A stretch of DNA of 64,000 bases, taken from NCBI GenBank assembly GCA_964354085.1, contig CAYGYA010000017.1, forward strand, positions 961 through 64,960, read 5' to 3'. Below, piece by piece: positions 1 to 54,485 of the stretch. The notes below the pieces were generated by a model that saw nothing but the letters and a program-made list of their open reading frames with translations, had not been told where the DNA came from and made no database searches. This DNA is from an uncultured Methanosarcinales archaeon (GTDB taxonomy: Archaea > Nanobdellota > Nanobdellia > Woesearchaeales > SM23-78). Position 1 is the stretch's first letter. Each line of letters starts with the position of its first letter. A program made the position numbers and the translations under genes.

Positions 1-730
1 GATGTATCTGTTGCTGTTGCATTAAGAGTATAAGTGGTGGTTGTTATGTTTGTGAAATTGGTTGGTTGGTTTATTGTTGTTGTTGGTCCTGTTCTGTCTA
101 TTGTTATGTTTGTGTGTGTGTCGTTTTGTCCTATGTTTCCTAGTGTGTCGTTGGCGTATGCTCTTATTTCATATGTTAGGCTGTCTTGTAGTCCTGTCAG
201 GTTCCATGTGCATATGTATGTTGTTCCTATTCCTGTGTTGTTTCTGCATGCAAGAGTCCATGTTGCTGTGCTGTTTTGTCTGTATAGGAATGTTACTGTA
301 CTTACTGCTGTCATGTCTGTTACTGTTGCATTGAGAGTGTATGTGTTGGTGCTTATATTTGTGAAGTTTGCCGGCTGGTTTAGTGTTGTTGTTGGTCCTG
401 TTCTGTCCAGGGTTATGTTAGTGTGAGTGTCATTATTTCCTAACTTGCCCCATGTATCATTAGCGTATGCTCTTATTTCATAGGTCTTTCCTTCAGGTAA
501 TGCTGATACATCCCAAGTGCATGTGTATGCTGGTCCTCCTGTTTTGTTAGTGCAGATTGTATGCCAACTGTCGCTTGAATTTTGCCTGTACATAAAGGTT
601 AAGGTGTCAACTGCTGTTGTGTCTGTTGCTGTTGCATTTATCAAATATGTACTTGAGCTGATGTTGGCGAAGCTGACTGGGCTTGTCAAAGTTGTTACAG
701 GACCTGTTGTATCAATATGTATTGTATAAT
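1..730 (-). repeat. Intragenic tandem repeat, period ~306-309 bp (~102 aa), two full copies plus one partial copy
   Basis: gttggtcctgttctgtc occurs at 84-100 and 393-409. gcgtatgctcttatttcata occurs at 154-173 and 463-482. Both pairs are offset by exactly 309 bp. A third, more diverged unit carries acaggacctgttgtatc near 699-715. Confidence 0.8.
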
Positions 731-3518
731 TGAACATGTAAGAGCCGCTTAAGGGCACAGTAGCATTATCCCAACAAATTATGTTCCAAAGAATGTTTCC
801 ATCAGGTAAGGTCGCGTTGATTATATTGGCACTGTTGTTTTGCACACTTGTTATGCTTGCGTTTGGAGCCCATGAACCAGTGGCATTAGTGTAGAGAGTG
901 CAATTGTTAAATCCTCTATCCTCACTTACTGTGAAATTAAATGAAATAGTTGATGAGCTTGTTATGTTAGTCATGTTACCAGGATAATTCAGAGCAGTAA
1001 CATTTGGAGGAAGGTTTGAGCTGTTATAATTGACAGTCACATAAATTTGTGTAACCCAGGCTAATCTGCTGGCAGAAGATGAATTTCTCAGGACTCCCCA
1101 TTCCATGTTGTTTATGGTAGTGTAATTCCATGGTTGTCCTGTTGCGGGATTGGTTGTGTAGTTCCATCCAGTAAGGCTATAGGTAGTCCAACTGTTTGAT
1201 AATGCTTGGGTGTTGCCATTATCATAATCAGTTCCTCCTTGTCTGTAGAATATTTCAAGACTGGCTGCTCCTCCTGTGTTTGATTTCATTCCTCGCACAC
1301 TAACAGCGACCCAATTGATAGCTAGAGGATTCTCGCTAAGATTCTGGAATGTGAAAGAATTCCTGCTAGTATCGTCGGGACTAGCTATGTATGTAGTGCC
1401 GTCGTCAGGAGTTGCTTCGGGGTCATCCACTGATTGCCATCGGGTAGCTGCCGGGCTACTGCCTGAGATTGTCCAGCTAACATAATTACCATCTCCGTCA
1501 GGGAGTTCATTTTCGCTTTGAGGGTCAACTGCAAGGTACCAAGGCCTTGCCTCATAGAAAATTCCAGAGTCATAGCTTACAAATGCCGGTCCTAGTTCGT
1601 ATAATTCTGGTGTTATTTTTGGTGGAGTTGCGCTGTAGCTTACAATAGAGTTGTTATTCAGGTTGCTCCATGTTAGATAAGTTTTGTTGTTACCGTTTGT
1701 TATTGTTGCTCCATTGCCATTTACTATTTCAAAACTGTCTGGCAAAACTTCTGTGAAGTTAAAGATTGTTGCGTTTGTGTGTGATATTATTCTTATGCTT
1801 GAGGTAAATGCTCCATTCCATGGGTCTGTTGTTGTTGGAGTGGTTCTAAGAATGTCGAACTCATAGTATGACTTTACTGTGAAGTATGAGTACATTGTAC
1901 TGTTGACATTATTTCCTTGAGCGCTCACTGATAAAGCATAGTTTCCTTCTAATGCTGTTTGGTTATAGCTAGTCTCGTATATCCCTCTACTGGTTTCTAT
2001 TATTTCTCCTCTTGCTGTGGTCAGATTAATAGTGCCATTGTCAGGAGCAGTTATTGTCAAGCTGACATCTGCGTTACTTACAAGGTGTCCCTGGGTGTCG
2101 AGCACCACCATTATTATTTCTGCTGTTTCTCCAGGATAATAAATTGGCTTTTTGGTGTTGATGCTGGCCACTCCTGTTTCTGCATAGCCAGGATCTTCAG
2201 GGCTTATTTCCAATTCATAATCCTGGCCCGGCACCAGGTCCATTATCTTGCTCCAGGTTCCTAGGCACGTCTGGGTTTCAAAGTCCCATTCCTTGCACTT
2301 CCATAATTCTGTGCCCTTTGCAGTTCCTGTGAGTGTTCCATTTGTGAAGTTTAGTGATGATGCATCAATTGCAAAGGCTTTAAGAACATTCTTCTTACCC
2401 CATCCTTTTCCCAAGCCTATATTGTTGAATGGGATTTCATCAATTCCAAGGCTGGTGTTGCGTGAAAGATTAAGCAATAGTTTTTTCAGCACTATTTTCT
2501 TGAATATTCTGTTTTGAGGGATGATTTGTGCAAACTCTGCTTGTTTGATGTCAAGAGTTGCGTTGCTATCATTAACATTAAGGCTTATCTCATTGTTCTG
2601 CTGGTCATAAAGAGTTATAGTAGCGCTTTCAGTAATTCCTTTGCTGCTGACTAATCTGATAACATTATCATTTTTGCCTTGTGGCTGTGGCGTTGGTTCA
2701 CAAGTCTCATTTGTTGAAGGTTGAGGAGTTAATTCTTGGGAGGATGGTTGATACGGTGTGGGTTGAGGAAGAGATTTTTCTAAAACTTGGAATTCATGTC
2801 TTTCTATTTCATTATTATCCTTATCTCTCAGAACTAAATAATGAGTTCCTATTCCTCTTGGTACGAACTTTATTTCTTTTAAGTCGCCCATGTATCTTTG
2901 AACAAAGCCTTGGTATTCATAGTACAATTTGTAATCCTGTTCCTCTGTTAACGACAAGCTAACGCTCGCAATAACAGGCTCTCCAATTGCATAAATTTCT
3001 TTATCAGTGAATATCTTTTTGACTATCTCATTGTTTTGGTTTGTTTCATTAACTTCAATTGTAGTATTTGTTTCATTGCTGGCTTGATTGCTGGTGTTGT
3101 TAATAGCCTCGTTTATTGTTTCATTGATGGTTTCATTTTCTTGTGCTGGTTTTCCTACATAGAAATCCAATGAATCAACAATCACCTGGTTTGTTTTGCT
3201 TGTTAGCTCAACCCTGTATGGTCCTTCTTCTTTTGGGTAGAAGTCAATATTGTTTTTCAGTTCTCCTCCGTACCTATAGAAATTTTGATTAGAGTAAACA
3301 CTCATATCATAATCATTGAGATTGGGTGATGTTATTATGAGAGTTACTTTTTCACCAACATCATAGTAAGGCTTCTCAACAGAGAGGTAAAGGAGCTTCT
3401 GCGGCTGGTCTTCGCTGAGGGTAAGGGTTGCGCTTGCTAGAATAAGGACTATTAAAGCCAGCAGAAGTCCTATGCTCCTCTTTTTTCTATCTGTTTTGTT
3501 TTGGGTTGTTGGTTTCAT
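1..3518 (-). CDS. Giant secreted/cell-surface adhesin-like protein with signal-anchor and Ig-like repeat modules; partial, the C-terminus runs off the left window edge (>1172 aa)
   Basis: ATG at 3518-3516 gives MKPTTQNKTDRKKRSIGLLLALIVLILASATLTL (hydrophobic signal/anchor). I hand-checked the frame at both ends (bases 59-3 read NFTNITTTTYTLNATATDT). It is missing from the ORF track only because no stop lies in the window. Dense N-x-S/T sequons. Three ~100-aa D(R/T)TGP...YEIRAYANDT modules sit at the edge. The + strand ORFs at 34-2962 are V/L/F/C-rich antisense shadows. Confidence 0.85.
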   Translation of the reverse strand, partial: MKPTTQNKTDRKKRSIGLLLALIVLILASATLTLSEDQPQKLLYLSVEKPYYDVGEKVTLIITSPNLNDYDMSVYSNQNFYRYGGELKNNIDFYPKEEGPYRVELTSKTNQVIVDSLDFYVGKPAQENETINETINEAINNTSNQASNETNTTIEVNETNQNNEIVKKIFTDKEIYAIGEPVIASVSLSLTEEQDYKLYYEYQGFVQRYMGDLKEIKFVPRGIGTHYLVLRDKDNNEIERHEFQVLEKSLPQPTPYQPSSQELTPQPSTNETCEPTPQPQGKNDNVIRLVSSKGITESATITLYDQQNNEISLNVNDSNATLDIKQAEFAQIIPQNRIFKKIVLKKLLLNLSRNTSLGIDEIPFNNIGLGKGWGKKNVLKAFAIDASSLNFTNGTLTGTAKGTELWKCKEWDFETQTCLGTWSKIMDLVPGQDYELEISPEDPGYAETGVASINTKKPIYYPGETAEIIMVVLDTQGHLVSNADVSLTITAPDNGTINLTTARGEIIETSRGIYETSYNQTALEGNYALSVSAQGNNVNSTMYSYFTVKSYYEFDILRTTPTTTDPWNGAFTSSIRIISHTNATIFNFTEVLPDSFEIVNGNGATITNGNNKTYLTWSNLNNNSIVSYSATPPKITPELYELGPAFVSYDSGIFYEARPWYLAVDPQSENELPDGDGNYVSWTISGSSPAATRWQSVDDPEATPDDGTTYIASPDDTSRNSFTFQNLSENPLAINWVAVSVRGMKSNTGGAASLEIFYRQGGTDYDNGNTQALSNSWTTYSLTGWNYTTNPATGQPWNYTTINNMEWGVLRNSSSASRLAWVTQIYVTVNYNSSNLPPNVTALNYPGNMTNITSSSTISFNFTVSEDRGFNNCTLYTNATGSWAPNASITSVQNNSANIINATLPDGNILWNIICWDNATVPLSGSYMFNYTIHIDTTGPVTTLTSPVSFANISSSTYLINATATDTTAVDTLTFMYRQNSSDSWHTICTNKTGGPAYTCTWDVSALPEGKTYEIRAYANDTWGKLGNNDTHTNITLDRTGPTTTLNQPANFTNISTNTYTLNATVTDMTAVSTVTFLYRQNSTATWTLACRNNTGIGTTYICTWNLTGLQDSLTYEIRAYANDTLGNIGQNDTHTNITIDRTGPTTTINQPTNFTNITTTTYTLNATATDT

Positions 3519-3546: not shown

Positions 3547-4140
3547 TCATGGTATCAGCTTTGAGTACCTCAGTTTTAGCTCGTCCTCTATCTCTCTGAT
3601 GTACTCGTAATACTTTTCATAGCCCTGCAGGATGGTGTGCTTTTCATGCAGTTCCTTGGTTTTCAGCATCTCTTTGAGAAAACTCTCTTTGGTGTGAATC
3701 TCTGTCTTGTAATCCTTTATTACCTGCTTTAGAATTGCTTTTTCAAACTGTTCCTTTTCTTCTGGCTTGTCAAGCACAAAAAGAATCCTGTCCCTGCTTT
3801 TGAGCACAAGCTGGAGGTTGATGATTCTCTTGGCTTTGTCAATATAATCAATTACTTGCTGCAGCTCAGGATTTTGTTTCAGCTCAGATGCTTTCTTGTG
3901 TATCTCATTGAGAATGAGCAGATAAATGGTTTCATCATTCTTGAGGTTGAGTGAGCACAGATATGAGCGGCCTATTATGGTCTTCCTAAAGATGTTGTTC
4001 TTTATGAGAAGCGTGACTTTCTTATTGATATAAGGATATTTTTTCCCTAGCTTATGTGCTATCTGGTTTATGCTGTATAGAGAACTGATGTCCTTGGAGT
4101 ACAGGCTGATTATTTCCTGCTCTAGCTTGTTGCCAATCAC
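3547..4140 (-). CDS. Hypothetical protein with N-terminal winged-helix-like DNA-binding region and K/E-rich helical C-terminal half
   Basis: GTG start at 4140. The N-terminal ~70 aa (SLYSINQIAHKLGKKYPYINKKVTLLIKNNIFRKTIIGRSYLCSLN) looks like an HTH plus beta-wing. No family recognised. It sits directly upstream of the giant adhesin gene. Confidence 0.5.
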   Translation of the reverse strand: MIGNKLEQEIISLYSKDISSLYSINQIAHKLGKKYPYINKKVTLLIKNNIFRKTIIGRSYLCSLNLKNDETIYLLILNEIHKKASELKQNPELQQVIDYIDKAKRIINLQLVLKSRDRILFVLDKPEEKEQFEKAILKQVIKDYKTEIHTKESFLKEMLKTKELHEKHTILQGYEKYYEYIREIEDELKLRYSKLIP

Positions 4141-4396: not shown

Positions 4397-4726
4397 TTAT
4401 GCTGTTTTAATCTCTTTAAGAACAATATCTGCTCCGCACAAAACCTTTGGCTGTTTACTGCATTCTGGGCATTCAAACAAGGTAAAATCATGGTGCTGGG
4501 CAAGTATTCGCGGAGCTCCTTCATAGCCACACTCGCACTTAACCTTGGCTTTGATGTTGTTCACAATTATCTTAAAATCAGCCATTGCCCTAAGAATTTC
4601 TTTGAGCTCATTTGCTGGCAGATGTGCAAGTTCCCCAACTTCCAGGGTTATTGATTTTATTTTTTTTCCCTTTGCCTTTGCCCTGGCTTCTTTTAGAATT
4701 TCTTTTGCAATAATGGTTTCGTGCAT
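4397..4726 (-). CDS. hypA: HypA/HybF-like metallochaperone (Ni-binding MHE N-terminus plus Zn ribbon)
   Basis: Starts MHETIIAKEIL. Has a CxC...CPxC zinc site (KCECG ... ECPECS). At 109 aa, the layout matches the HypA family. Confidence 0.7.
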   Translation of the reverse strand: MHETIIAKEILKEARAKAKGKKIKSITLEVGELAHLPANELKEILRAMADFKIIVNNIKAKVKCECGYEGAPRILAQHHDFTLFECPECSKQPKVLCGADIVLKEIKTA

Positions 4727-4770: not shown

Positions 4771-5910
4771 TTATGGCTGTTTTTCTTCTTCCTCATCACT
4801 CAGCCTGCTGGTGATTATCCTTCGCTTCTTTAGTATGTCCCCTAGCCCTAGCTCTGCTGATGGCTTTGCTTCTTTTTTTGGCTCTTCTTTTTGCTCAAAT
4901 GGTTTTTCTTCCATTTGAGGTCTCTTTGCAATACCATCTATTCTTGATAATCCATCTGTCTTAGATACTCCATCTATCTTGTTCAGATACTCTGATTCTG
5001 CTCCAGGCATTTTTTCCTCTCTAACCACGGCCTCATCAAGCATCAAGCCACGGCCTCCCCTTAGCTCGCTCTTTATTTTCTTTACAGTCTCTTTTAGCTC
5101 TATTTTCATGTGTTTTGAACGCTCATCAAGCAGTTTCATAATATTGCCTGTGTGCTTCTCAAATTCTGTGAACCTGTCCATGAGGCTTCCGAACTCCTTT
5201 TTCTCTGCTTTGTTGCTTAGCTGGAGCTTCATATTGTCAAAGTCTCCTTGCATGGCGTGGAAGGTTTTCTCAACCTCGTCAATTGTGCGTTGGAATTTAT
5301 CAAATTCTGCATACTTCTTTTCTAGGTCAAGGAAGATGCTTTCTGACTTGTCAGCATGCCTCTCAATAACTGCCTCAACTTTCTTAATCTCAAGAATCTC
5401 TCCCTTAACCTCCTCATTAAGCTTGACAACCTGCTCTATTCCCTTGTAGAAGTTCATCTGCTGCCTTATCTTTTTCAGCTCTTCCATAAGGTCTCTCATC
5501 ATTGCTTCATTGCTCTCAATATTAGCTTTAAGAGCTTCTGCTTTTCCTTCCTGCTTTCTTATCTCAATCATCAGTTTCTCAGGTTGCACGCTCTCAACAA
5601 GGTCAATTGCTTTGGTAGCGCTCACCTCTATCTTAGACATGGTCTTGTTAGTATCCATTATCATGCCACGCAATTCTCCCATCTGCTCGCTTACTCTTGA
5701 AAATCTCTCAGAATTAGCCTTCCTAATTTCATTCAGGGATTCTAGCTGGGCTTTTATCCTGGTAAGCTCTATGTCTACCTTTGCATTTCCAGAACTGAAG
5801 CTGTCTTCTTTTTTCTCCTGGCCAGCAGCTGACGCCTCTGCCTCTGTCTGGGCAATCCCATCAGCTATGATGTCATCTCTGCTCTTCTTTTTTCCTCCAA
5901 ATAAGCCCAA
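4771..5910 (-). CDS. Coiled-coil protein (about 379 aa), function unknown
   Basis: TTG at 5910 is preceded by the SD GAGAGGTGA and gives MGLFGGKKKSRDD. The longer track ORF (to 5985) begins with TTG inside the end of the upstream gene. E/K/L heptad-rich throughout, with no TM segment. Confidence 0.6.
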   Translation of the reverse strand: MGLFGGKKKSRDDIIADGIAQTEAEASAAGQEKKEDSFSSGNAKVDIELTRIKAQLESLNEIRKANSERFSRVSEQMGELRGMIMDTNKTMSKIEVSATKAIDLVESVQPEKLMIEIRKQEGKAEALKANIESNEAMMRDLMEELKKIRQQMNFYKGIEQVVKLNEEVKGEILEIKKVEAVIERHADKSESIFLDLEKKYAEFDKFQRTIDEVEKTFHAMQGDFDNMKLQLSNKAEKKEFGSLMDRFTEFEKHTGNIMKLLDERSKHMKIELKETVKKIKSELRGGRGLMLDEAVVREEKMPGAESEYLNKIDGVSKTDGLSRIDGIAKRPQMEEKPFEQKEEPKKEAKPSAELGLGDILKKRRIITSRLSDEEEEKQP

Positions 5911-5974
5911 TAGTTCACCTCTCTTTTTTTTATTAAATTGATAATGAAATATTTTAATATATTTATGAATTCGA

Positions 5975-6481
5975 TTAATCTTCAATTACCTTTTCTGTTT
6001 CCTTTGCTACTCTCTCCCTTAGTTTTTGGATAATGTCTTTTTTCACATTAAGCTCTTCTTCTTTTAATGCTTCTTGTAGCTCTGATTCTGCCCTTTTTAA
6101 AATTTGCTCTACTTCATCAAAATCTCGTTGTTCATGGGTCACTTCTGCCATTTTGATCTTGGCATTAGCATTCCTTAGCACCAGGTCTGCTATTAGAGGG
6201 TCTTTGCCTGCCCTCCTCGCATCGCTTATCCTGGATTTTAGCTCTTTTAATGCTTCATTCAAGCGCGTTATTCTTGTCTGATGCATCTCTTCGCTTTTCT
6301 CATCAGGCAAAAGCTTTTTTTTAGCATCCAGCCTTCTCAGCTTCTCATCATAAGCTTCTTCTATTTTCCTGTTGGTCTCGTTTACTTCTTTAACAAGCTT
6401 TCTAATTATAAATCCGTCATCCTCTTGTGCTTCATTGCTTTCTTGCGCTTCATTATTATCCATGCTCTGTTTCTCTTCCAT
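5975..6481 (-). CDS. Acidic coiled-coil protein (168 aa), function unknown
   Basis: ATG at 6481, 10 nt after the stop of the ATPase gene. Acidic N-terminus (NNEAQESNEAQEDD) followed by long helical K/E-rich segments. Confidence 0.6.
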   Translation of the reverse strand: MEEKQSMDNNEAQESNEAQEDDGFIIRKLVKEVNETNRKIEEAYDEKLRRLDAKKKLLPDEKSEEMHQTRITRLNEALKELKSRISDARRAGKDPLIADLVLRNANAKIKMAEVTHEQRDFDEVEQILKRAESELQEALKEEELNVKKDIIQKLRERVAKETEKVIED

Positions 6482-6491: not shown

Positions 6492-9400
6492 TCACCCGCT
6501 CTCTAATGCTTGTAATAGGTTGTTCTTGTCATGAATATTACTTATCTTTTCTGCTAGCTCATCATTATGCAGCCCCTTCTTAACCCAGTCTGCGAACTTA
6601 TTGTAATCTTCGCCAACATAATGCTTGAAAGTGATTTCATCCATCTGGCTGATAATTTTCTTCAGCTCTCCTATTGTTTTTATCTCTTCGCCATTGTCCA
6701 GCTTGAAGGTATATGTTATGGTTGCTTCTATTCCATTAGTCTCTTTTTCTTCTTTATTCACTTTTTTCTCAAGATCATGTTCTGATTTTTTCTTCTCACT
6801 TTCAACTATTTCTGGTGGCTTAGCCATTTCCTCAAAAGCCTTTGCCTCATTTAACTTCTTTACACTGTCAATATTAAGCTTTGGCAGTGGTTTGTTATCC
6901 CTTCTAAGAGCCAGGAGGTCGAGCATCTCTGGTTTTGTGCGGGCTAATTTAAGGTGGTCTGCTAGTTCCTTGTCCTCAACAGCATTCTGTACCCAGTCTG
7001 AAAAGTCATTCTTGGCTCCACTAACGTGCTTTTCAAAGTCCTCGTCTTTCATGGCTGATATCTCGTCAAAAAGGCTAGCCATGTTTATTACTAGCATACC
7101 GTTCACGAGCTTGAGTATTTTTTCAGGGCTCACATCCTTTCTGAAAAGCGCTGCTCCGCTTACTTCTTTTTTCTCTCCTTCTTCTGATTTTGCAGATTCT
7201 TTTTTCATCTCAGCCTCAAACTGCTCTCTTGCCTTTTTGGCTTTTGTAATTGCTTCTTGCAACTCTTCTTCTGAGACCAGTTTTTTCTCGAGCTTCTCAG
7301 GTTTTTTACCTAGCTTAGCCCAGTTCTTCTCTATTCTAGGGGTTAGGCCATCAAGGTATATCTGTACCATGTTGAAGTTGCCTGTTTTTACCTTGTCAGT
7401 TGCGAGCTTAAGCTCAAGCTTTAGGTCAAACACGTCAAGCCCTTCTTTTTCCAGCTGCTCAAGCTCGAATTGCAATTGGTCTATCTTGTCGTTGTATTCA
7501 TTGTACTTCTCAATTTCTTCATCAGTAAGCCTTTGCACACTGTGCAGCAGCGGCCTGAAGGCGATGAAATAAGGCTTACCTCTATTATAGTGTGGGTTCT
7601 CTACCATCCCGCTACCAACAGTTGCCTTTACTAGAGATCGCAGGACTTCTTCTCCGTATTTTACCCTGATTCTTTCCAGGTCTCCTTCATCTCTTGTCCT
7701 CATCTGGATTTCTGTGTTAATGTTAGCTTTGATAGTTCCGACAAAGTCGCTCAAAACCTGTGATATCAACAGCATGCCAAGTCCCCATTTTCTGAACTCT
7801 CTGCATCCTCTTTCTATCTGGAGGAATCCTTCTCCGCTTCCTCCGAATTTGGGCAGCAGCCTGTGAACCTCATCATAAACAAACAATACTTTGAGAGTTC
7901 TGCTCTCTCCAAAGTTTGCCCTGAAAATCTCCCTGATGCTGTTTGATACAAACATATCCATTTCTTTTGGCTCGAGCTTGTGGCAGGCAAAGATTTGTAT
8001 CTCTCCAGGCTTCACATATTTCTTGATATCAATTATTTCTCTTGGATTTGATATCTGCCTTATATTCCCGCTAAATGCTCTTGCATCAGTTGGCTTCATG
8101 CCAAAGAATGGATAGAGTGCAAACATGGTCTTGTCTGTACATTTCCTAAGCATGCCTGTCCACTGAGCTGTTGGGTCAAACACAATCACAGCCACTCCTT
8201 TCAGAAGCATTTCTTCTACAATAGCCTGGGCAGATACTGTTTTTCCTCCTCCTGTGCTTCCTGCATCTATGGTGTGAGTCATAAAGGCTTCAAGGTTGAA
8301 ATAGGTTTTGTGGTCTGTCTCTGCTATTTTTCCAACAAATATGCTTCTTGGCCCTGGCTTTGGTAGCTCATTAAGCTCTACTTTGAGATGGAATTTCTTT
8401 TTGGATTCTATTCTCTTTTTTATTTGCCAGTAAGCTAATAGCCCTAGAGCAACAAGTATTAGGAAGAGCAAGACATGCCATACTCTTATTGGGCCTACCA
8501 GCAATATCAAGTACCAGGGAGTGCTTATCTTGAACATAGTGCTTGTTCCTGCGCTTAATCCGAGATAGTTGGCAGTGACTCTGAGTATGTAGTCTCCGGG
8601 CTTTGCATCTCTCGGTATTATGGCATTCTTGAGCATAGAGAATGATGTTTTTAGGAATACGTTGGTTTCATAGTCCCACAGTGTTTCTTTTCCCTCAACA
8701 TCCTGGATAGTATAATATAGCTGCACAGGGTATTGTAAGTCTGTTAGCAGGTTTCTCAAATCAGTTTTGAATTTTAAGGTGTCACCCGGATAGGCTATTT
8801 TCTTGTTGAGCTCAAGGTCTATTAGTAATGCTTGCACAGGAAGTTTTTCTTTTGACAGTATCTCAATGGTGATAGGTATGCTTGCATTTATATCTCCGCT
8901 CATGAGCAGAGTACCGTTGTATACCCCGACATCCCCGACTCCGAATATGGTAATAGTCATGTAGTCAGAGCCATGAGGCATGAGCACCATTGATATCTTA
9001 TCCATTTTTATGAGGTTACTGACATTTCCCTCAATTGTGAAATAAACAGTTGCTGGCTTTTCCTTGAAGCTGAAAAGGGTAATCTTTTCCTGAAGGAAGT
9101 TTCCTAGGCGCAGTTTCCTGTTAATCTCAGATATTGAGACCACATAATCTGTTCCCTCAATTTTTTGTGGCCTTTGGATTACTGGAGGCATATCATATTC
9201 TGCTGTCTTGGTTTTTGTCCCTTTCGCATCGACTCCTGTATCAAAGGTGTTTCCTGGTTCATCATAGCCAGGCCCTATGCCTGGATTCGGCGGATTAATA
9301 GGCTGCTTTGCCACCATGACAATATTGTGCATAGTTCCGTTTCCTCTTGTTATGTTCACGTTGCTAATATATGTCTCGTATCCTGTTTTCATTGCATAAA

Positions 9401-10283
9401 TAGTCCAGTTGCCCTCTCTTGCAGTCATATTATAGAAGCCAGTTATATTATTGCTATAATTCACAGCATCAGCAACTTGTACTATCACTGATCCTAATGG
9501 GTTGCCAGAGGTATCAGTAACATTACCATATACATAACCAGCCCAGGGTGCTGAGCCTTCTCCTGCTGGGCAATTATCTGTCGGATCAGCCCAGACATAA
9601 TAATCCTGCCATGTGCTGTAATGGATAGGTAGGATTATTTGATAGTTTAGACGCGAGCCTTGGAATCCATTAATAGGAGTATCAAGTATTTTTGTCACAA
9701 TTACGATATTGCTATTATTATCTTTCAATATGCCTGTGACAAATGCTGTTGAATTGATATTGTTCCATGAGTACGTATACATGGCAGGAGCAGTAATGGT
9801 TTGCTCACCTACATTGAAGGTCGCACTTTGTGTGAATGTGTTAGCTGCTGAAGAGAAATCTGAGCTGCTAATGTTCAGGTATGCATCAATTTCTGCTGTT
9901 GTTGCTGCCCTGAGAGAATTGAAAAGTATTTGGTCTTCTGGCGTCATGCTTGCATATATTTCATGCTCCTTATTCGGCTCAAAGCATTCGAATAGCAGGT
10001 GCTTCTCATTATCAACTTGCGTGAGAGTAACATTCCCTGTCAGGTTAAAGTACCATTCAGTAGTCCAGCCAACCCCCCATGCTGTTCCATAAAGAGCAGA
10101 CCAATGAGTAACGTCATAAACTATTGCTAAGTCTATTTCGCTGACTGTTCCTCCTTCTGTTTCAAGATAAGCTGCATAGCCCAGGAACTGGCTAACAATA
10201 ACCAAGCCTTTTACAGCCAGTATTAGCATTATGATTATCAGAATCCTAAATGTAATCTCCTTTTGTTTTGTTCTTACAACCAT
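6492..10283 (-). CDS. Bitopic membrane protein: ~600-aa extracellular Ig/CarboxypepD_reg-like domain, TM, cytoplasmic HerA/FtsK-superfamily (DUF87-like) P-loop ATPase, coiled coil, duplicated C-terminal helical domain
   Basis: TM1 is FRILIIIMLILAVKGLVIV. TM2 is WHVLLFLILVALGLLAYW. Walker A is DAGSTGGGKT (nt 8238-8261). Walker B is VLFVYDEVH (nt 7861-7890). A HerA-like EFRKWGLGMLLISQ motif is present. The extracellular part contains GNVTDTSGNPLGSVIVQV...GYETY (carboxypeptidase-regulatory-like fold). Confidence 0.75.
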   Translation of the reverse strand: MVVRTKQKEITFRILIIIMLILAVKGLVIVSQFLGYAAYLETEGGTVSEIDLAIVYDVTHWSALYGTAWGVGWTTEWYFNLTGNVTLTQVDNEKHLLFECFEPNKEHEIYASMTPEDQILFNSLRAATTAEIDAYLNISSSDFSSAANTFTQSATFNVGEQTITAPAMYTYSWNNINSTAFVTGILKDNNSNIVIVTKILDTPINGFQGSRLNYQIILPIHYSTWQDYYVWADPTDNCPAGEGSAPWAGYVYGNVTDTSGNPLGSVIVQVADAVNYSNNITGFYNMTAREGNWTIYAMKTGYETYISNVNITRGNGTMHNIVMVAKQPINPPNPGIGPGYDEPGNTFDTGVDAKGTKTKTAEYDMPPVIQRPQKIEGTDYVVSISEINRKLRLGNFLQEKITLFSFKEKPATVYFTIEGNVSNLIKMDKISMVLMPHGSDYMTITIFGVGDVGVYNGTLLMSGDINASIPITIEILSKEKLPVQALLIDLELNKKIAYPGDTLKFKTDLRNLLTDLQYPVQLYYTIQDVEGKETLWDYETNVFLKTSFSMLKNAIIPRDAKPGDYILRVTANYLGLSAGTSTMFKISTPWYLILLVGPIRVWHVLLFLILVALGLLAYWQIKKRIESKKKFHLKVELNELPKPGPRSIFVGKIAETDHKTYFNLEAFMTHTIDAGSTGGGKTVSAQAIVEEMLLKGVAVIVFDPTAQWTGMLRKCTDKTMFALYPFFGMKPTDARAFSGNIRQISNPREIIDIKKYVKPGEIQIFACHKLEPKEMDMFVSNSIREIFRANFGESRTLKVLFVYDEVHRLLPKFGGSGEGFLQIERGCREFRKWGLGMLLISQVLSDFVGTIKANINTEIQMRTRDEGDLERIRVKYGEEVLRSLVKATVGSGMVENPHYNRGKPYFIAFRPLLHSVQRLTDEEIEKYNEYNDKIDQLQFELEQLEKEGLDVFDLKLELKLATDKVKTGNFNMVQIYLDGLTPRIEKNWAKLGKKPEKLEKKLVSEEELQEAITKAKKAREQFEAEMKKESAKSEEGEKKEVSGAALFRKDVSPEKILKLVNGMLVINMASLFDEISAMKDEDFEKHVSGAKNDFSDWVQNAVEDKELADHLKLARTKPEMLDLLALRRDNKPLPKLNIDSVKKLNEAKAFEEMAKPPEIVESEKKKSEHDLEKKVNKEEKETNGIEATITYTFKLDNGEEIKTIGELKKIISQMDEITFKHYVGEDYNKFADWVKKGLHNDELAEKISNIHDKNNLLQALESG

Positions 10284-10322
10284 TTGTTTTTCATCTCATC
10301 AATAATATTCTCTTATATTTCA

Positions 10323-13300
10323 TTAAATCAAATTCTTTGTATTCTCAATTGCGATTTGTATCTTGTTGCCAAGGGCTACGAGGGTCGGATGAATCAGTTC
10401 CTTGGTATCATCATCAAGCTGAGTGTATGCTGCTTCAATCCTCTTGTATTCTTCAAGAGAAGCAGACAGCTGGCCGTTGTTAAGCAAACCCTGGATATTA
10501 TTCACCATTACTTTCAGCTCAGCAATATTGCCCTGGGCTTGCATTGCATCGCAATATTCCTTCACCCTCACTGCTGTTTGGGAAATATTTTCATATACAT
10601 CATTCTTTGCAAGAGTTGATAGCTCGCTGTAAGCATCTTTTGCTTCATTATAAAGATCAATGGCTTTCTCATGATCGCCTCCGTCAAGATTGTCATTAAT
10701 CTCATTGAGTATGACGCTGATATAGTGAAGGCTTTTCTTGCCATAAATTCTGTAAGCAAGATACCTGGCTGTGTTGATGCCGTCGTATTTAATTCCTGCA
10801 AACACCAAGCCGCCTAGCAGTATTATTATTACTGGTATGAACATTATTCCTTTGCCTGATGGCATTTTCAGGCCCTTAATTGAGAAGCCAGTTATTTTCT
10901 GTTTAGCCTCAATTGACGCCGGGTCTACAAGCACCACAGTTTTTATTTTCTTCAGCAGTTCCAAGTCTTGATTAGCTTCAAAATAATAAGTTATGGTGGT
11001 GTCGCCTTGTAAGCCAAACTTGATGATTGGGTCTTGCATCACCACTTCATATTTCTGTGAGCTCATGATGTTATCTGCTTTCTCAGCAACATCTTTCGGT
11101 ATTATTTCCATGATGAATGCGCCTTCTGTGATGTTATAGGTTTTTATCTCCCTAAGAATAATGCTTGCATCGCTTTGAGTCCCATCTCTGTAAGTAACCC
11201 TGGCAGTTTTTACCTTGCTGGAGATTAGGACTTCTTGCTGCAAATCATTAATGAATTTCAGGAGCTCTTTCTTGCTAATGCTTAGCGAAACATTGTTTAT
11301 CTCAAGGTACTGGTCGAGCAACGCCTCTATCTCATCTGGTTTTATATAGTCAACAAATGCATCTTTGTTAAGCAGCTCAATACTTATAGGTGTTTTTTGA
11401 TAGGCTTGTTCTGCGTTCAGCACCATTTGTTCCCCTTCTGCCTGCTTATCAGCATCTGTTAGGTCTGTCCTGAAATTAAGAGCATCAAGATCTCTTATGG
11501 TGTTCTTGAAAACAGATATGCTTTCATCTATAATGCTTGAAATCCCAAGAGCTTCTGCCGCTTCTTTCTCATCTTTTGGCAGGGCATTAATGTTATCAAG
11601 GATTTGCTGGAATTCCTTAACCCAGTCGTCATATGTCTTGAAATTCCCGCTACTTGCCTGTGGCTCAGTTGTCTGGGGGGTTGGTAATGCAGCAAGGCTT
11701 CCTACATTGAACACCCAGCTAGTACTCATTCCACTTTTTCCAATCTTATCAACGCATTCAACTTTCCACCAGTAGCTTTTGTTCTCAAGCTCTATAACCC
11801 CGAATGCATGCTCAGCACTGTCACTTACCTCTATACTTCCTAGGTAGGCAAAGAAGCCATCATTTTTCTCATTGATATAGAAGCTGCAGTTAAGTGTCCT
11901 GTTGTATTCTGCTTTGAAAGCCAGCTCTGTTGTTGTGCCTGTTATTCCTGAATTATTTCCTGGCCTTATGAGAGTGATTATTGGCTCCTGGTTAATTACT
12001 GGCTCAAGGAACAGAGTAATGGTTTCGTCTTTTGTAATGTCTAAATCACTGTGGTACATTGTATAATTTTCTTTTAGGACGAATATTCCCTTTTGCCCTG
12101 GTGTTAGGTAATATCCTATTTCTCCATTTGCATCTGTTTCTTTTTCTTCATCATCAATATCAACAGTTGCTCGTGAAATAACTCCTTTTGTTACTGAGTT
12201 TTTTACAACTATTTTTACATAATAAGTATTGTCAACAGTTATGGTTATGCTGCTGTTCTTGGTGTTGTTATAAGCATCTTTAACTGAGACTGTATTGACA
12301 TAGTTCCCTGCTGTCGTATATGTTATGTTGGTTTTTTTGCCATTCTTTACTGAGCCATCGCTTAGATGCCAGGTGTAATTAAGAGTGCCAACTCCTCCTT
12401 TTGCATCTGCTTTAAGAATGACTGGAACATTCCTTCTCTGGTCATCATCAGTATCAATATCTATCTTGATATTGTTTTTTATTTCATAATTCAGTGCTTT
12501 TGCTTCTGTGAAGCCGCTGTAGTTGAAGAAAGCCTCAAGCAGATATTTGCCCTCGTAATTAGTGAACATAAGATATTCCTGGAATGGATAATTCATTACG
12601 TTCTGGGCATTGACAGGAACTTTGCATTCTACAAATCCTGGCTTGTCAGGGCAGACTTCTACCCTTATGCTTGTTCCCTGCGGAGCACTTATGGTCATCA
12701 GGATGTTATCTCCAATATTGTATTCTATTCCCGGGATGGTTATGTTAAATGTTGGCTGTGCTGGCAGCGCTTCAATCCTGAATGTCCTTGTTTCGCTTGT
12801 CTCTGAGTTATTGACATAATCATAGCAGGTTATTCCCCAAGTGTAATTTCCTGTTTCTAATGTGCTTAGCGTGGTTGTTGCAGGCTCGCTGTTTTTGGCT
12901 GTGATGCTTTTGTTCACGTTGTTGTTCAGTGTGATGTCGCAGCTGATGTTCTCTGCAATGTTGTCAAGCACAACAAAGTTGATATCTACACTAGATGCAT
13001 TTATCTGAGTCTTATTAATAGGGAAGAAGAGCACTATGGTTGGCTTTAAACTGTCAATTATGATGGTTCTTTCTTCGCTGCTCTCAGAATTGTTGTTATA
13101 ATAGCATTCAATTCTCCAGCTGTGGTTTCCTGTTGTTAGGTTTTCTGTGAATGCATTGAATCCCGGGTTGGTTATGTTGGTGTTTGTTGCTTTTGTCTCT
13201 GAGTCTATGATGAGCTTGCAATTAGTAACAGTTAGGTTGTCAAGGCCGACATAGTAATCAAAGGTTACGATTTTGTTTGAGTAGGTGTTGTTTGCTGGGG

Positions 13301-13409
13301 TCACAAGGTCAATTGTTGCTGAGGCTAATGATGTACAGAATAGCGCAAAGAGTGCTGCAACTAGCAACAAGCTAATTCTCTTTTTTGCTATTTTGTTTTG
13401 CTCACTCAT
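10323..13409 (-). CDS. Large type-I membrane surface protein with Ig-like modules, PKD domain, CarboxypepD_reg-like domain, C-terminal TM and helical cytoplasmic tail
   Basis: Signal peptide RISLLLVAALFALFCTSLASA. Three modules end in G(N/H)(Y/S)WxIxC. PKD-like GTLNYTWHLSDGSVKNGKKTNITYTTAGNYVNTVSVKDAYNN. TM is IMFIPVIIILLGGLVFAGI, followed by a ~150-aa helical tail. The ATG at 13409 overlaps the upstream stop (ATGAGTGA). Confidence 0.8.
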   Translation of the reverse strand: MSEQNKIAKKRISLLLVAALFALFCTSLASATIDLVTPANNTYSNKIVTFDYYVGLDNLTVTNCKLIIDSETKATNTNITNPGFNAFTENLTTGNHSWRIECYYNNNSESSEERTIIIDSLKPTIVLFFPINKTQINASSVDINFVVLDNIAENISCDITLNNNVNKSITAKNSEPATTTLSTLETGNYTWGITCYDYVNNSETSETRTFRIEALPAQPTFNITIPGIEYNIGDNILMTISAPQGTSIRVEVCPDKPGFVECKVPVNAQNVMNYPFQEYLMFTNYEGKYLLEAFFNYSGFTEAKALNYEIKNNIKIDIDTDDDQRRNVPVILKADAKGGVGTLNYTWHLSDGSVKNGKKTNITYTTAGNYVNTVSVKDAYNNTKNSSITITVDNTYYVKIVVKNSVTKGVISRATVDIDDEEKETDANGEIGYYLTPGQKGIFVLKENYTMYHSDLDITKDETITLFLEPVINQEPIITLIRPGNNSGITGTTTELAFKAEYNRTLNCSFYINEKNDGFFAYLGSIEVSDSAEHAFGVIELENKSYWWKVECVDKIGKSGMSTSWVFNVGSLAALPTPQTTEPQASSGNFKTYDDWVKEFQQILDNINALPKDEKEAAEALGISSIIDESISVFKNTIRDLDALNFRTDLTDADKQAEGEQMVLNAEQAYQKTPISIELLNKDAFVDYIKPDEIEALLDQYLEINNVSLSISKKELLKFINDLQQEVLISSKVKTARVTYRDGTQSDASIILREIKTYNITEGAFIMEIIPKDVAEKADNIMSSQKYEVVMQDPIIKFGLQGDTTITYYFEANQDLELLKKIKTVVLVDPASIEAKQKITGFSIKGLKMPSGKGIMFIPVIIILLGGLVFAGIKYDGINTARYLAYRIYGKKSLHYISVILNEINDNLDGGDHEKAIDLYNEAKDAYSELSTLAKNDVYENISQTAVRVKEYCDAMQAQGNIAELKVMVNNIQGLLNNGQLSASLEEYKRIEAAYTQLDDDTKELIHPTLVALGNKIQIAIENTKNLI

Positions 13410-13677
13410 GCTCTAGTTCCTCAATCATTCTTTTCAGCCGCCTAACCATCTCTTCTTTTATCATATTCTCTGTCTTGAAATCAGTTTTTTTCTCTGCAGG
13501 CTTTTCTTCTTCAAGAGGCTTTATCTCTCCCAGCCTTATCTTGTATTTTCTTACCTGACTCTTGATTACGCTTCTTACTTCCTCGCTTATGTCTAAGAAA
13601 TGGTTATTTTTTGCCAGATCTCTTAGGGTCTGAACCAGGGAGGATGGCATCCTCACACTTACGATAGAAGTTACCAT
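13402..13677 (-). CDS. Ribbon-helix-helix (CopG/Arc-like) DNA-binding protein with K/E-rich tail
   Basis: N-terminal beta-strand plus two helices: IVSVRMPSSLVQTLRDLAKNNHFLDISEEVRSVIKSQV. The start overlaps the upstream stop (ATGGTAA at 13671-13677). Confidence 0.7.
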   Translation of the reverse strand: MVTSIVSVRMPSSLVQTLRDLAKNNHFLDISEEVRSVIKSQVRKYKIRLGEIKPLEEEKPAEKKTDFKTENMIKEEMVRRLKRMIEELEHE

Positions 13678-13877
13678 CCTTCACCCCCTTGCCCAGATTT
13701 TTTTTCCTCATGCAGTTGGCTCTGCACATATTCTCTGGCGAATTCTCGTATAGCTTCTGAGCGCGATTTGAAAACTTTCTTTTTTACCAATTGGTCTAGT
13801 TCTAGAATTAGCTCGTCAGGCAATCTGATGTTGAGTATTTCTGTCTTCTTTGTCAACCTTCTACCCCTGTATGACAA
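13671..13877 (-). CDS. Ribbon-helix-helix (CopG family) DNA-binding protein
   Basis: ILNIRLPDELILELDQLVKKKVFKSRSEAIREFAREYV is a textbook RHH pattern. TTG start at 13877; the exact start is uncertain. Confidence 0.7.
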   Translation of the reverse strand: MSYRGRRLTKKTEILNIRLPDELILELDQLVKKKVFKSRSEAIREFAREYVQSQLHEEKKSGQGGEGW

Positions 13878-13928
13878 ATGTATGTCATATGTATGCTTTT
13901 TGTCAGTTTTCTGTATGCCTGAGTTCTC

Positions 13929-13964
13929 TATACTATGCGAATAGTATACGTAATCGTATAGTAT
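13929..13964. promoter_or_regulatory. Inverted/direct repeat set upstream of the RHH operon (candidate RHH operator)
   Basis: TATACTAT-gcga-ATAGTATA at 13929-13948, plus a third half-site TATAGTAT at 13957-13964. A further inverted repeat ATGACA-aatgta-TGTCAT at 13871-13888 spans the predicted start codon. Confidence 0.4.
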
Positions 13965-14071
13965 TCCCTATGTATTACACTAACTTATATATAAATATTT
14001 TGATTTAGAAGACATATCTTCACTTGGCAATAGAAACCTTTAAATGCCATGAGATAGTTCTTTTTTTTTAG

Positions 14072-49080: not shown

Positions 49081-49712
49081 CCTTTCCAAATCTTTTCCTT
49101 GAACTGCTTTAGCCACTGCAATCCTCTGTAAACAAAGTAGCCTGAAACATCATTTCTTACTTCATCCATTACGCCCTTTGGATTGCCAAGAATAAAGCCA
49201 GTGCAGGCTTCTGTTTTTTCTAGAAGCTCTTTGTCAGTGCCGTCAAAAAGAGTGCCTCTTACCTGTTTCCATAATTCTCCGAACTGGTACTTTAAGTAGT
49301 CAGGCATTGCTTTGAGAATATCATCAACAGGAACCTTGTCAGTAGGATTATTGCTGCTTGGTTTTTGCGCAGAGTTAAGCTTTCTTAGCAACTCATCAAG
49401 ACTTTCTTGTTCAGTACTTTTCTTGCCATTATTATTGGCATTAGCTTCAACTCCGGGGCTAACATCACTCCCAGCATTGCTGCTTGCATAATTATTGTTA
49501 GGAGCCTCATCAATGCCAGGAGCATTTGTTGGCTCAGCAACAGGAGGAGTATAATTATTATCTTTTAGCTTGGAATCAAGCCCGTTCTCAACTATGTTCT
49601 TCCTTATCCTCTCAAACTTCTTTTCCTCAGGCTTCTTGCCCTGGCTATAGTTAGCCTTGCTGTCTTTGGTCTCATCTTCATACATCCAAAAGTATTTTTC
49701 AGTGCGGTTCAT
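49077..49712 (-). CDS. Hypothetical protein (211 aa), low-complexity N/S/P-rich middle
   Basis: ATGA overlap with the vWA gene stop (49709-49712). No motif recognised. Confidence 0.45.
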   Translation of the reverse strand: MNRTEKYFWMYEDETKDSKANYSQGKKPEEKKFERIRKNIVENGLDSKLKDNNYTPPVAEPTNAPGIDEAPNNNYASSNAGSDVSPGVEANANNNGKKSTEQESLDELLRKLNSAQKPSSNNPTDKVPVDDILKAMPDYLKYQFGELWKQVRGTLFDGTDKELLEKTEACTGFILGNPKGVMDEVRNDVSGYFVYRGLQWLKQFKEKIWKG

Positions 49713-51499
49713 ATATTAATCACCCCGGATTTTGTCAGGTCTTTGATTATAACTCCAGGAATGTCTTCTTCTTTCCTGATATTGTAGAATGCAATCTTGC
49801 TCTTGTCGCTCAGGTGCTGCATTTTCTGCGCGCTTCTTGACCTGGAGCTTCCATCTATGTAGAGAATGCTTATCCTGTTGGTGTTTGACTTGTCGTTCAG
49901 GTTATTCATCACAGAATCAAGATTGTATATGCCTCCGTCTGTTATGAGGATAATGTCTGCTTCTTTTTTTGTGCTTGAAACAAGCTTGTCAATTGCTTCT
50001 CCATCTAGTTCTGTGCCGCCATCCTGGTAATGAATCAGGTTTGAGGCTATTTTAGTATAATCTCTTGAGAATCCATAGGCATATGTTTGGCTGCTGAAAT
50101 TAACCACGCCAATCCTGCTTCCTTTTTTCAGGTATTCCTTGGCTGCGCAGAAAGCTCCAAGAACAGCATTTGATTTTGCTTCAGCAGGATTAGTCATGCT
50201 GCCAGAAGAATCTATCATCAGGATTAGATCGGGGGTTATTTTTGACTTTTGCTTTCCTACAGGGCCACCAGAATAATTAATTGCCTTTGTTATACTAGGC
50301 ATGAACTTCCCATAACTGTTAAAAACATCAATATCATTGAGAGGATTATCAGCTTCCCAGGGCTTTAAGCCTGACCTTTTACTTTCCTTGCCTGAAAAAA
50401 GTGATTCTTTGTCATTAATTCTTATTGGATAATATTCTGCAAGAATGGAATAGTATTCAATGAGCGGGTCCAAGCTTTTTCTTGGCTCTTGGTTTTGTAC
50501 TCTTCCTCTTCCCTTTCCTATCCATTGGTTTTCCTTATTCTCTTCCTTTGCTATTTCTTCTTCTGTTTTCTTAACAAAGTCAGAAATCACAACAAATTCT
50601 GAAGGCTCATCGCTTTCCTCTGCTATTTCCCTCAAAGCCCTTCTTATCTCGTTCTTATCATATGCTCTTATGCCGAACTTGTCCAAGCCTGTTAATGAAT
50701 AGGTTTGTGCTCTAGAACCTCGGCCATTGTATCTGCCACGCCCATTGCCTTTTCCATTACCTATGCCATTTCTCCCTCCCCCACTGAAGTCAGGCTCATT
50801 TTCATCAAGAAGCTCATGCACAATCTCTGCAAAGCGCTCAAGATTCTTAATAAGAACCTTATCATCTCTTTGCGTGAACATAATCTTTTCAAGCTCTAAA
50901 AGCTTGGGCTTTAGTTCTGCAGGTAATGGTAGTGTGTTGAAGTCAAATCCTGTTTTTGATTGATAAACATGGCTTAGCAGCAGGTCAACTCTAGAATCCT
51001 TGCTTAGATTTTTGTAAATATAATAAATGTCTTTGTTGTTCTTGTTAAGCATCAAGTCCAGGTTCAGGCTTACGTCAAGGAAATAATTAGTAACAGCATC
51101 TTTTTTGTCACCGCATATCTGGGATGCTTTGTGGAGCATTCTAAGCAAGTTCTTTAAGTCCCATGGTATGTCTTTGTAATGCCCTGCTTCATGGCTGAGT
51201 ATGCCTTTGAAAATAGACTCGTAGCCCATACCTTTTGCTGACAAGAAATCAACAAAACCCTTATTGATTGTAATCTGATGGTCCTGCATGTTAATGCACG
51301 CAGTTGATGTGCTTGAATCTTCTTTTATCTGAGGAGGAGGAAGCTCATAACAGTAGAGTTTGCCTTGCACTTCTTCCCATGCTTTGTCAAGAGCAGTTTC
51401 TAATGATATTAGATAGGGCTTGGCTTGGTGAGCAGGGTTAGCTCTGTTACTCTTTCCAAAATTCCTGAATATCTTGTCAAAAATAAATTCTTCTATCAT
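49709..51499 (-). CDS. HExxH metallopeptidase-like domain fused to a von Willebrand factor A domain (DUF2201-like partner of MoxR ATPases)
   Basis: GILSHEAGHY (about nt 51180-51200). G/R/N-rich linker GGGRNGIGNGKGNGRGRYNGRGSR. vWA MIDAS LILMIDSSGSMT (about nt 50195-50221), with downstream TDG. Confidence 0.75.
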   Translation of the reverse strand: MIEEFIFDKIFRNFGKSNRANPAHQAKPYLISLETALDKAWEEVQGKLYCYELPPPQIKEDSSTSTACINMQDHQITINKGFVDFLSAKGMGYESIFKGILSHEAGHYKDIPWDLKNLLRMLHKASQICGDKKDAVTNYFLDVSLNLDLMLNKNNKDIYYIYKNLSKDSRVDLLLSHVYQSKTGFDFNTLPLPAELKPKLLELEKIMFTQRDDKVLIKNLERFAEIVHELLDENEPDFSGGGRNGIGNGKGNGRGRYNGRGSRAQTYSLTGLDKFGIRAYDKNEIRRALREIAEESDEPSEFVVISDFVKKTEEEIAKEENKENQWIGKGRGRVQNQEPRKSLDPLIEYYSILAEYYPIRINDKESLFSGKESKRSGLKPWEADNPLNDIDVFNSYGKFMPSITKAINYSGGPVGKQKSKITPDLILMIDSSGSMTNPAEAKSNAVLGAFCAAKEYLKKGSRIGVVNFSSQTYAYGFSRDYTKIASNLIHYQDGGTELDGEAIDKLVSSTKKEADIILITDGGIYNLDSVMNNLNDKSNTNRISILYIDGSSRSRSAQKMQHLSDKSKIAFYNIRKEEDIPGVIIKDLTKSGVINI

Positions 51500-51505
51500 T
51501 TTTTA

Positions 51506-52840: not shown

Positions 52841-52841
52841 A

Positions 52842-54479: not shown

Positions 54480-54485
54480 TTCCCT

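Follow-up and report, generated by a model that had tools for sequence, protein, structure and literature searches.

For nucleotides, lipids, and amino acids, DPANN archaea rely on other cells, and the transfer of material between these symbionts and their hosts is an unresolved problem. The most conspicuous candidates for transfer devices are the SPEARE-type proteins, whose size, up to 9,409 amino acids (aa), hampers their study. Nanohaloarchaeal SPEAREs were described as proteins of up to 8,553 aa, mostly extracytoplasmic, with a transmembrane (TM) helix near the C terminus and an intracellular part that was the most conserved region and was read as similar to type III restriction enzymes (ResIII-like); similar sequences were noted in Woesearchaeota, Aenigmarchaeota, Micrarchaeota, and Altiarchaeales (Hamm 2019, PMC6642349). 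A later reanalysis described SVXNc_0300, a protein of 9,409 aa with a Sec signal, ~75 immunoglobulin (Ig)-like domains, a TM helix, a “VirB4/TraG-like ATPase,” and a coiled coil; a second ATPase gene adjoins it, and a type IV-like secretion “straw” was proposed (PMC10266531, 2023). Here, we analyze 64,000 nucleotides of contig CAYGYA010000017.1 (the window), from an archaeon that GTDB places in the Woesearchaeales, and in particular its gene at 6492..10283, an intact open reading frame (ORF) with an ATG start that encodes 1263 aa. All features of the window described below are on the minus strand. The intact ORF and its full-length homologues lead us to identify the product, with high confidence in both its identity and its topology, as a SPEARE-like fusion of an ectodomain, a TM helix, and a HerA-type ATPase. 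The architecture itself is already published; the modest additions made here, which appear to be new, are the assignment of the ATPase to the HerA clade, the conserved core of the family, and the conserved operon.

Membrane topology

A Kyte-Doolittle scan of the protein finds exactly two hydrophobic segments, residues 12-30 and 599-617. The first lies in an N-terminal signal anchor (TM1, residues ~6-33, 10185..10268; AlphaFold helix at 6-32), which is followed by an invariant G35 and by Y36, nearly invariant among the aligned homologues. The second lies in TM2 (residues ~599-629, 8397..8489; model helix at 601-629), which contains the motif WHVLLFLILVALGLLAYW (residues 602-619, 8427-8480) and has a cytoplasmic end rich in Lys and Arg. 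There are 15 N-X-S/T sequons in the 559 residues between the two helices, for an expectation of 6.5 from shuffled sequences (p ~5e-4), and none in the 634 residues after TM2, where 2.6 are expected. Three Lys or Arg occur in the first 11 residues, before TM1, and 7 in the 22 residues after TM2, which matches the positive-inside rule. Given the two hydrophobic segments, the distribution of sequons, and the charged flanks, the N terminus is inside, an ectodomain of ~560 aa is outside, and the ATPase is inside. An earlier interpretation made from the DNA alone (the sequence-only reading) had put the two large domains on opposite sides of the membrane; all three kinds of evidence agree with it and none places them on the same side. 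The ectodomain makes up 44% of the protein, which is less than the majority share.

The ATPase and the cytoplasmic tail

The sequence-only reading had proposed that a large ectodomain, a TM helix, and a HerA-type ATPase are joined in one protein, and we found every motif that it quoted within the intact ORF. The ATPase core (residues 640-915, 7539..8366), recognized by Pfam DUF87, PDB profiles, and Foldseek, has a Walker A motif DAGSTGGGKT (residues 673-682, 8238-8267), a Walker B motif VLFVYDEVH (residues 799-807, 7863-7889), and the segment EFRKWGLGMLLISQ (residues 829-842, 7758-7799), which includes the sensor LLISQ (residues 838-842). The DUF87/HerA central domain of Pfam scores 29.4 bits, above its cutoff of 23.2. 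When a profile of the ATPase region was compared with PDB sequences, HerA proteins matched at 5e-12 to 3e-7, FtsK at 0.06, the type IV coupling protein (T4CP) IcmO at 0.15, and VirB4 at 0.29. The structural model gave a similar ranking in Foldseek, with SsoHerA (4d2i) at the top (1e-10), other HerAs next, and then TcpA, DndH-C, FtsK, and VirB4 at ~1e-7, so the best match among HerA, VirB4, and FtsK was the one that the sequence-only reading had named. Only the mad8 (7.5e-15) and HerA (7.5e-12) models of PADLOC matched the domain, and NCBIfam gave local matches only, the best being CedD. On these profile and fold comparisons, we assign the ATPase to the HerA clade, with intact catalytic motifs.

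The motor is under strong constraint. Its 379 residues align without a single indel across 21 full-length homologues, in which the G-x-x-G-x-G-K of Walker A, the Asp of Walker B, the S-Q of the sensor, and many Arg are invariant. Of 150 family representatives, 148 keep an intact Walker A; 129 were scored for Walker B, and 117 of these have D-E. In a few members the Glu is replaced by Gly. The catalytic residues are thus not degraded, and from its conserved motifs the ATPase looks active. The domain lacks a HAS-barrel, whose place is taken by the TM helix: between TM2 and Walker A there are only ~45 aa, modeled as three short strands that form no barrel, and the RecA-like alpha/beta core of the model starts ~25 residues after TM2.

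Behind the ATPase lies a helical domain (residues 916-1000, 7284..7538), delimited by the helices of the model and by the alignment, whose invariant residues include D950, F952, D953, G968, F970, N971, M972, P982, R983, and W988 and which is also conserved in nanohaloarchaeal-type members. Long helices at ~920-1040 of the model form a coiled coil C-terminal to the ATPase. The cytoplasmic tail (6495..7283), described from Pfam and the model, comprises the coiled coil at 1001-1040, two DUF5752-like repeats at 1043-1130 and 1193-1263, and a disordered linker. One repeat matches DUF5752 at 4.3e-4 (20.1 bits, below the 23-bit cutoff) and the other at 1e-5 (25.5 bits). The repeat (6495..7157) has ~80 aa, predicted to fold as a beta-hairpin and five helices, and the motif F-x-L-x-N-G...H-V...N-D-F-A-x-W. 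The repeats have no PDB relative and no other family match, a literature search found no mention of DUF5752, and they are missing from homologues P0023, P0025, and P0041-P0043.

The ectodomain

Two AlphaFold2 models, both built from a 43-sequence alignment, cover the protein: one spans residues 1-641 (mean predicted local distance difference test score, pLDDT, 78) and the other residues 596-1263 (mean pLDDT 81, predicted template modeling score 0.63). The most distal part of the ectodomain is a family-specific domain (residues ~45-240, 9564..10151; model and alignment) with invariant C100 and C238. It is well predicted by AlphaFold2 at about residues 60-240, as a mixed beta/alpha fold, and has no Pfam relative; PDB profile searches gave chance-level matches only. 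Next comes a putative CarboxypepD_reg-like beta-sandwich (residues 248-323, 9315..9542), seen in the model and as a subthreshold Pfam match (PF13620 at about residues 251-323, 8.3e-5, 23.3 bits, below the 32.3-bit cutoff). The PF13620 annotation is present on many homologues, and P0041-P0043 have multiple copies of the domain. A Pro/Gly-rich linker (residues 326-377, 9153..9308), predicted to be disordered (pLDDT <50 for 330-377), leads to two membrane-proximal Ig-like domains (residues 380-476 and 486-588, 8520..9146), identified from the model, Foldseek, and alignments. The two are conserved family-wide and align with those of nanohaloarchaeal-type members. The Foldseek results for the ectodomain model are dominated by generic tandem Ig and fibronectin type III proteins (RbmA, transglutaminase, and ciliary ASH-domain proteins). 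Pfam finds no laminin-G domain in the protein, though Hamm 2019 states it for all SPEAREs. The ectodomain had been proposed to be of the Ig/CarboxypepD_reg kind: the beta-sandwich at 248-323 and the two Ig-like domains of the model bear this out, and the CarboxypepD_reg part falls below the Pfam cutoff.

A large family in DPANN archaea

The sequence-only reading called the fusion unusual, a description that does not hold, because the layout recurs across a large DPANN family and was already published as SPEARE. The gene has 43 full-length homologues (43-90% identity), and these, together with the indel-free ATPase region, indicate that the fusion is not a chance artefact. An exhaustive profile search with the ATPase returned 3,081 matches, 413 of them below 1e-30. 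In the best 150 matches, which are up to 6,253 aa long, an N-terminal extension of ~80 to 5,650 aa precedes the ATPase. We scored the position of the TM helix in the 129 representatives in which 80 aa or more precede Walker A: 126 have one at most 80 aa upstream of Walker A, with a spacing of 53-70 aa in the family, and an N-terminal hydrophobic segment is also present in 70 complete representatives. Ectodomain length ranges from 147 to 5,528 aa (median, 836). The same ATPase is present in more than 400 representative clusters and, in a scan of one genome per GTDB species, in at least 579 loci. By their source names, members come from Woesearchaeota, Pacearchaeota, Nanoarchaeota, Micrarchaeota, Aenigmarchaeota, Altiarchaeota, and Nanohaloarchaeota. 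From this distribution, we consider the family restricted to DPANN archaea and the ectodomain-TM-ATPase layout its defining architecture, not a one-off. A few members lie on short contigs labeled Patescibacteria, Nitrospirae, Leptospiraceae, or Saccharibacteria, and many are labeled “uncultured Methanosarcinales.” These bacterial and Methanosarcinales labels are probably artefacts of binning or labeling and not a sign of spread beyond DPANN.

Two members connect the protein to the published SPEAREs. One is P0163 of Nanohaloarchaeota QJJ-9, with 41% identity over 639 aa, and the other P0175, an acidic JGI protein of 717 aa, with 42% over 549 aa. Both alignments run from the membrane-proximal Ig pair through the TM helix and the ATPase to the helical domain, and both proteins match the ATPase-family profile A2 at 1e-137 to 1e-144. 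P0175 has the length of the 717-aa Lake Tyrrell SPEARE of Hamm 2019 and the same source type, though identity with it is not proven. P0163 and P0175 also give a weak ResIII cross-match on the P-loop region, which explains the original “restriction endonuclease” label. By these alignments, we consider the protein a small, Woesearchaeota-type SPEARE-like member, compared with the named SPEAREs NAR1_1133 and SVXNc_0300 by description only. The core shared by the family is Ig-Ig-TM-HerA-helical domain, and the distal ectodomain is its variable part.

The protein shares with SPEAREs an export signal, an adhesin-type ectodomain of beta-sandwiches, one TM helix, a cytoplasmic P-loop ATPase, a coiled coil, and the restriction to DPANN. 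It differs from them in being 5-7 times smaller than the giant members, in lacking laminin-G, beta-propeller, or toxin-like regions, and in having its own conserved distal domain and C-terminal DUF5752-like repeats. Its ATPase groups with HerA, whereas that of SPEAREs was called ResIII-like in 2019 and VirB4/TraG-like in 2023. Finally, it belongs to a conserved six-gene operon that PMC6642349 and PMC10266531 do not describe.

The family also has variants. A class of shorter paralogues, of 779-815 aa, lacks the operon. At the divergent locus L003, two paralogues occur in tandem (7756-10017 and 10001-15226 of that locus). One, of 753 aa, combines an intact Walker B (FDEVH) and a DUF5752-like tail with an ectodomain that consists of the two Ig domains alone; the other, P0042, has 1,741 aa, many CarboxypepD_reg repeats, and a Walker B of YDGIH, with Glu replaced by Gly. 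The Gly variant also occurs in P0041 and P0043, which have no tandem partner. We therefore rejected the idea that Glu-to-Gly variants are always paired with an intact second ATPase, which holds in L003 and fails in L084 and L085.

A conserved six-gene operon

The gene is the fourth of six that overlap or are separated by gaps of at most 39 nucleotides (nt). The first encodes a ribbon-helix-helix (RHH) protein of the CopG type (68 aa, 13671..13877; Pfam RHH_1, 5.5e-9). The second encodes an RHH-like protein of 91 aa (13402..13677), with profile matches to the N-terminal RHH of NikR at 0.007-0.05, and overlaps by 8 nt the third, whose product we call the PKD partner (1028 aa, 10323..13409). Directly upstream of the ATPase gene, this partner is predicted from Pfam and hydropathy to have a signal peptide, a PKD/Ig ectodomain with 25 sequons, a TM helix at 847-865, and a helical cytoplasmic tail of ~160 aa. 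After the ATPase gene come two genes for coiled-coil proteins. The first (168 aa, 5975..6481), 10 nt downstream, has no family match; the second (~380-404 aa, 4771..5985), known only by coiled-coil-type matches, overlaps it by 11 nt. The TTG start listed for the 404-aa form is probably too far upstream, and the true start is near codon 26, since the homologues begin at a conserved M-x-L-F-K-K-K there. Searches of Pfam, NCBIfam, PDB profiles, PADLOC, and PHROGs assigned the partners to no known family beyond RHH, PKD, and coiled coil. We rejected as compositional the SMC, Rad50, and JetC matches of the coiled-coil partners; profile searches with the 404-aa family against PDB and Pfam give only generic coiled coil.

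We counted the conservation of the operon in 83 related loci from different species. Homologues of the PKD partner were found in 71, of the 404-aa protein in 59, of the two RHH genes in 56, and of the 168-aa protein in 41. Where found, they hold matching positions and nearly always the same strand: the PKD partner homologue lies immediately upstream of the ATPase gene in 71/83 loci, and the 168-aa homologue directly after it in 41/83. Loci without partners mostly have truncated flanks, except those of the short-paralogue class. Homologues of the 404-aa protein are also present in the divergent loci L084 and L085. Such conservation of six genes points to a multiprotein apparatus. The sequence-only reading, which saw the coupling of ectodomain and motor “within one polypeptide,” understated this.

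Just downstream of the operon, a gene for a giant secreted surface protein runs off the left edge of the window (3..3518, at least 1172 aa visible). It encodes MG2 and Big_3_3 domains and many sequons, and is preceded by a 197-aa winged helix-turn-helix-like gene with no family assigned (3547..4140). Of the 48 related loci with enough flank, 20 have a homologue of the giant protein downstream on the same strand, and such homologues are also found beside the divergent P0041 and P0043. The counterpart of the giant protein at locus L002, 7,039 aa long, combines Laminin_G with CARDB and MG2 domains and carries no ATPase. The idea that the left-edge gene is an ATPase-bearing paralogue found no support: BLAST against the 150 representatives gave only repeat-level matches, and no DUF87 is recorded for the L002 counterpart. 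In nanohaloarchaeal SPEAREs a giant ectodomain is part of the fusion; the giant neighbor may be the counterpart of that ectodomain as a gene of its own.

Comparison with characterized ATPases

HerA, the helicase of HerA-NurA DNA-end resection (SsoHerA 4d2i; T. kodakarensis 9x1l), is the best match of the protein by both sequence profile and fold, with a RecA-like core and the shared motifs Walker A, hhhhDExH, and ARExRKxGxG...SQ. The protein differs from it by its membrane anchor and ectodomain, by the missing HAS-barrel, and by an operon without the partner NurA: no NurA was found among the neighbors, where the 168-aa protein gives only a coiled-coil-type match to NurA_Pyro (0.0067, 15 bits for a cutoff of 650). 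The sequence-only reading was right that canonical HerA and FtsK have no ectodomain of such size. Another comparison is with CedB and CedD, TM-anchored HerA-clade ATPases required for DNA import in Sulfolobales, which act at cell-cell contacts in the crenarchaeal Ced system (PMC11868833). They too are archaeal, with a TM anchor and an ATPase facing the cytoplasm, and CedD is the best local match in NCBIfam. Yet this match scores 27.9 bits for a cutoff of 600 and covers residues 651-712 only, the operon has no CedA-type channel or pilin genes, the protein has no VirB4-like N-terminal domain, and Ced proteins lack a large ectodomain.

T4CPs have the layout TM-periplasmic loop-TM-ATPase, and in them, as in FtsK/SpoIIIE, N-terminal TM helices tether the ring to the membrane. 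The protein has the T4CP topology and belongs to the same superfamily as VirD4, TrwB, TcpA, and FtsK/SpoIIIE, with a loop of 560 aa instead of a few tens; TcpA, like FtsK, matches at ~1e-7 in Foldseek. Differences are the P-loop-only match to TrwB_AAD_bind in Pfam (0.0097, 15.3 bits for a cutoff of 20.5), the SXT_TraD score of 25.8 bits for a cutoff of 366, and the lack of a recognized all-alpha domain. For VirB4, its N-terminal domain (CagE/TrbE/VirB, PF03135) gives no match, and 4ag5 is at 0.29 by profile and at rank 45 by fold. FtsK, which with SpoIIIE has a polytopic N-terminal membrane domain, a linker, an alpha/beta motor, and a KOPS-binding gamma domain, is at 0.06 by profile, with no FtsK_SpoIIIE or gamma-domain match in Pfam. 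The locus also differs from those of T4CPs and FtsK in having no type IV secretion system (T4SS) or divisome genes around it.

Possible functions

By analogy with its relatives, we suggest that the protein is the membrane-ring motor of a symbiont surface apparatus; this is its most likely role, and we give it about an even chance. As in other FtsK-HerA ATPases, the domain would assemble into a ring. Because only ~25 residues link TM2 to the first ATPase strand and the HAS-barrel is missing, this ring would be held directly against the cytoplasmic side of the membrane, its pore axis at right angles to the membrane plane. Six (or twelve) single-pass TM helices and the Ig domains would form a bundle or collar outside, and together with the operon partners the protein would make up an apparatus that spans the envelope at the surface of the symbiont. 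This apparatus would use ATP hydrolysis to move a polymer across the membrane, inward or outward, at cell-cell contacts. We hold this translocation mechanism somewhat less firmly, at a little short of an even chance. The polymer would most likely be DNA, because HerA and FtsK are pumps of double-stranded DNA, CedB and CedD are needed for DNA import, and DPANN cells are generally considered to need nucleotides from outside. The gating of the motor from outside by a ligand or by host contact, proposed in the sequence-only reading, is compatible with this anatomy.

Several points weigh against such a motor. The operon has no VirB6/CedA-type polytopic channel, nuclease, or relaxase; any pore would have to consist of single-pass helices. 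In the Glu-to-Gly members, the domain may work without normal hydrolysis. The RHH proteins may be ordinary transcriptional regulators, and the conserved ectodomain and the syntenic housekeeping neighbors fit a core envelope role as well as a host-specific one.

An operon without channel, nuclease, or relaxase is also what one would see if the ATPase ring moved no substrate and served as a mechanical hub, clustering, anchoring, remodeling, or tensioning a surface apparatus linked to a coiled-coil scaffold. The apparatus would consist of the ectodomain, the PKD partner, and the neighboring giant MG2-type adhesin, whose gene is a frequent neighbor. The two coiled-coil proteins and the helical cytoplasmic tail of the partner, all conserved in the operon, fit this idea, as do the repeats of the cytoplasmic tail, which resemble protein-interaction modules, and the use of HerA rings as assembly platforms in the Sir2-HerA and DUF4297-HerA defense complexes that are among the PDB matches. 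Still, we find both the hub and this composition of it doubtful: the catalytic and ring-type motifs are extremely conserved, which suggests a processive motor rather than a scaffold, and the closest characterized membrane-anchored relatives (CedB/CedD, T4CPs, and FtsK) all translocate polymers. The protein could instead export effectors into the host through a type IV-like straw, as proposed in PMC10266531. Architecture and membrane geometry would be the same as for a DNA motor, and the tandem second ATPase of L003 echoes the adjacent second ATPase of nanohaloarchaea. But the ATPase is nearer to HerA than to VirB4 or VirD4, the operon yielded no T4SS component (neither a VirB4 N-terminal domain nor a VirB6-like channel), no genes stand out as candidate effectors, and the HerA-clade relatives with known substrates move DNA; such a straw is therefore unlikely.

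A housekeeping role like that of FtsK, in which a membrane-anchored pump clears or segregates the chromosome at division with the coiled-coil proteins as division or segregation factors, would account for the orthologue and operon being kept across many species beside adk, truD, and a cysteine desulfurase, and for a membrane-tethered homologue of DNA translocases next to proteins with weak SMC/Rad50-type matches. However, it leaves unexplained the large glycosylated adhesin-like ectodomain, the PKD surface partner, and paralogue ectodomains of up to 5,528 aa; there is no FtsK gamma domain, and the SMC-type matches are generic coiled coil. We consider it quite unlikely. The PADLOC matches to mad8 and HerA could suggest an antiphage defense module built on HerA, which we find very improbable: only the ATPase matches PADLOC models, none of the neighbors matches a partner there (Sir2, DUF4297, NurA, or another effector), and the protein is membrane anchored with a large ectodomain, in a conserved and syntenic locus that is not island-like.

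Returning to the DNA-moving membrane ring, one can take it a step further. The six-gene module, often beside a giant MG2/laminin-G protein, might be a minimal, self-contained, envelope-spanning translocon in which HerA ring, helices, and Ig collar form a conduit for DNA uptake or delivery at host contacts, and giant nanohaloarchaeal SPEAREs would be this core fused to the adhesin that is encoded next door as its own gene here. This is speculative and we hold it to be rather doubtful. The move of the ATPase from ResIII or VirB4/TraG to the HerA clade makes DNA the most plausible substrate. A compact member of 1263 aa with a well-predicted fold and five fixed operon partners offers a tractable construct and a defined list of partners for biochemistry and cryo-electron microscopy.

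Other genes in the window

Scans of the window with Rfam and for tRNAs gave no matches. PHROGs gave P-loop-level matches only (a terminase and an unknown family), and a phage origin was rejected. Between the operon and the giant surface-protein gene lies a gene for a HypA-like zinc-ribbon protein (109 aa, 4397..4726; Pfam HypA 6.7e-13, below the NCBIfam equivalog cutoffs), with homologues in 3 of the 83 related loci; the window shows neither hydrogenase nor urease genes. Farther away, 49709..55670 holds a run of genes whose products are a 596-aa VWA-domain protein, a 461-aa AAA_5/MoxR-like ATPase, a 545-aa protein that contains a polysaccharide-deacetylase domain, and a 394-aa protein without annotation. 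This run may be another envelope-related module.

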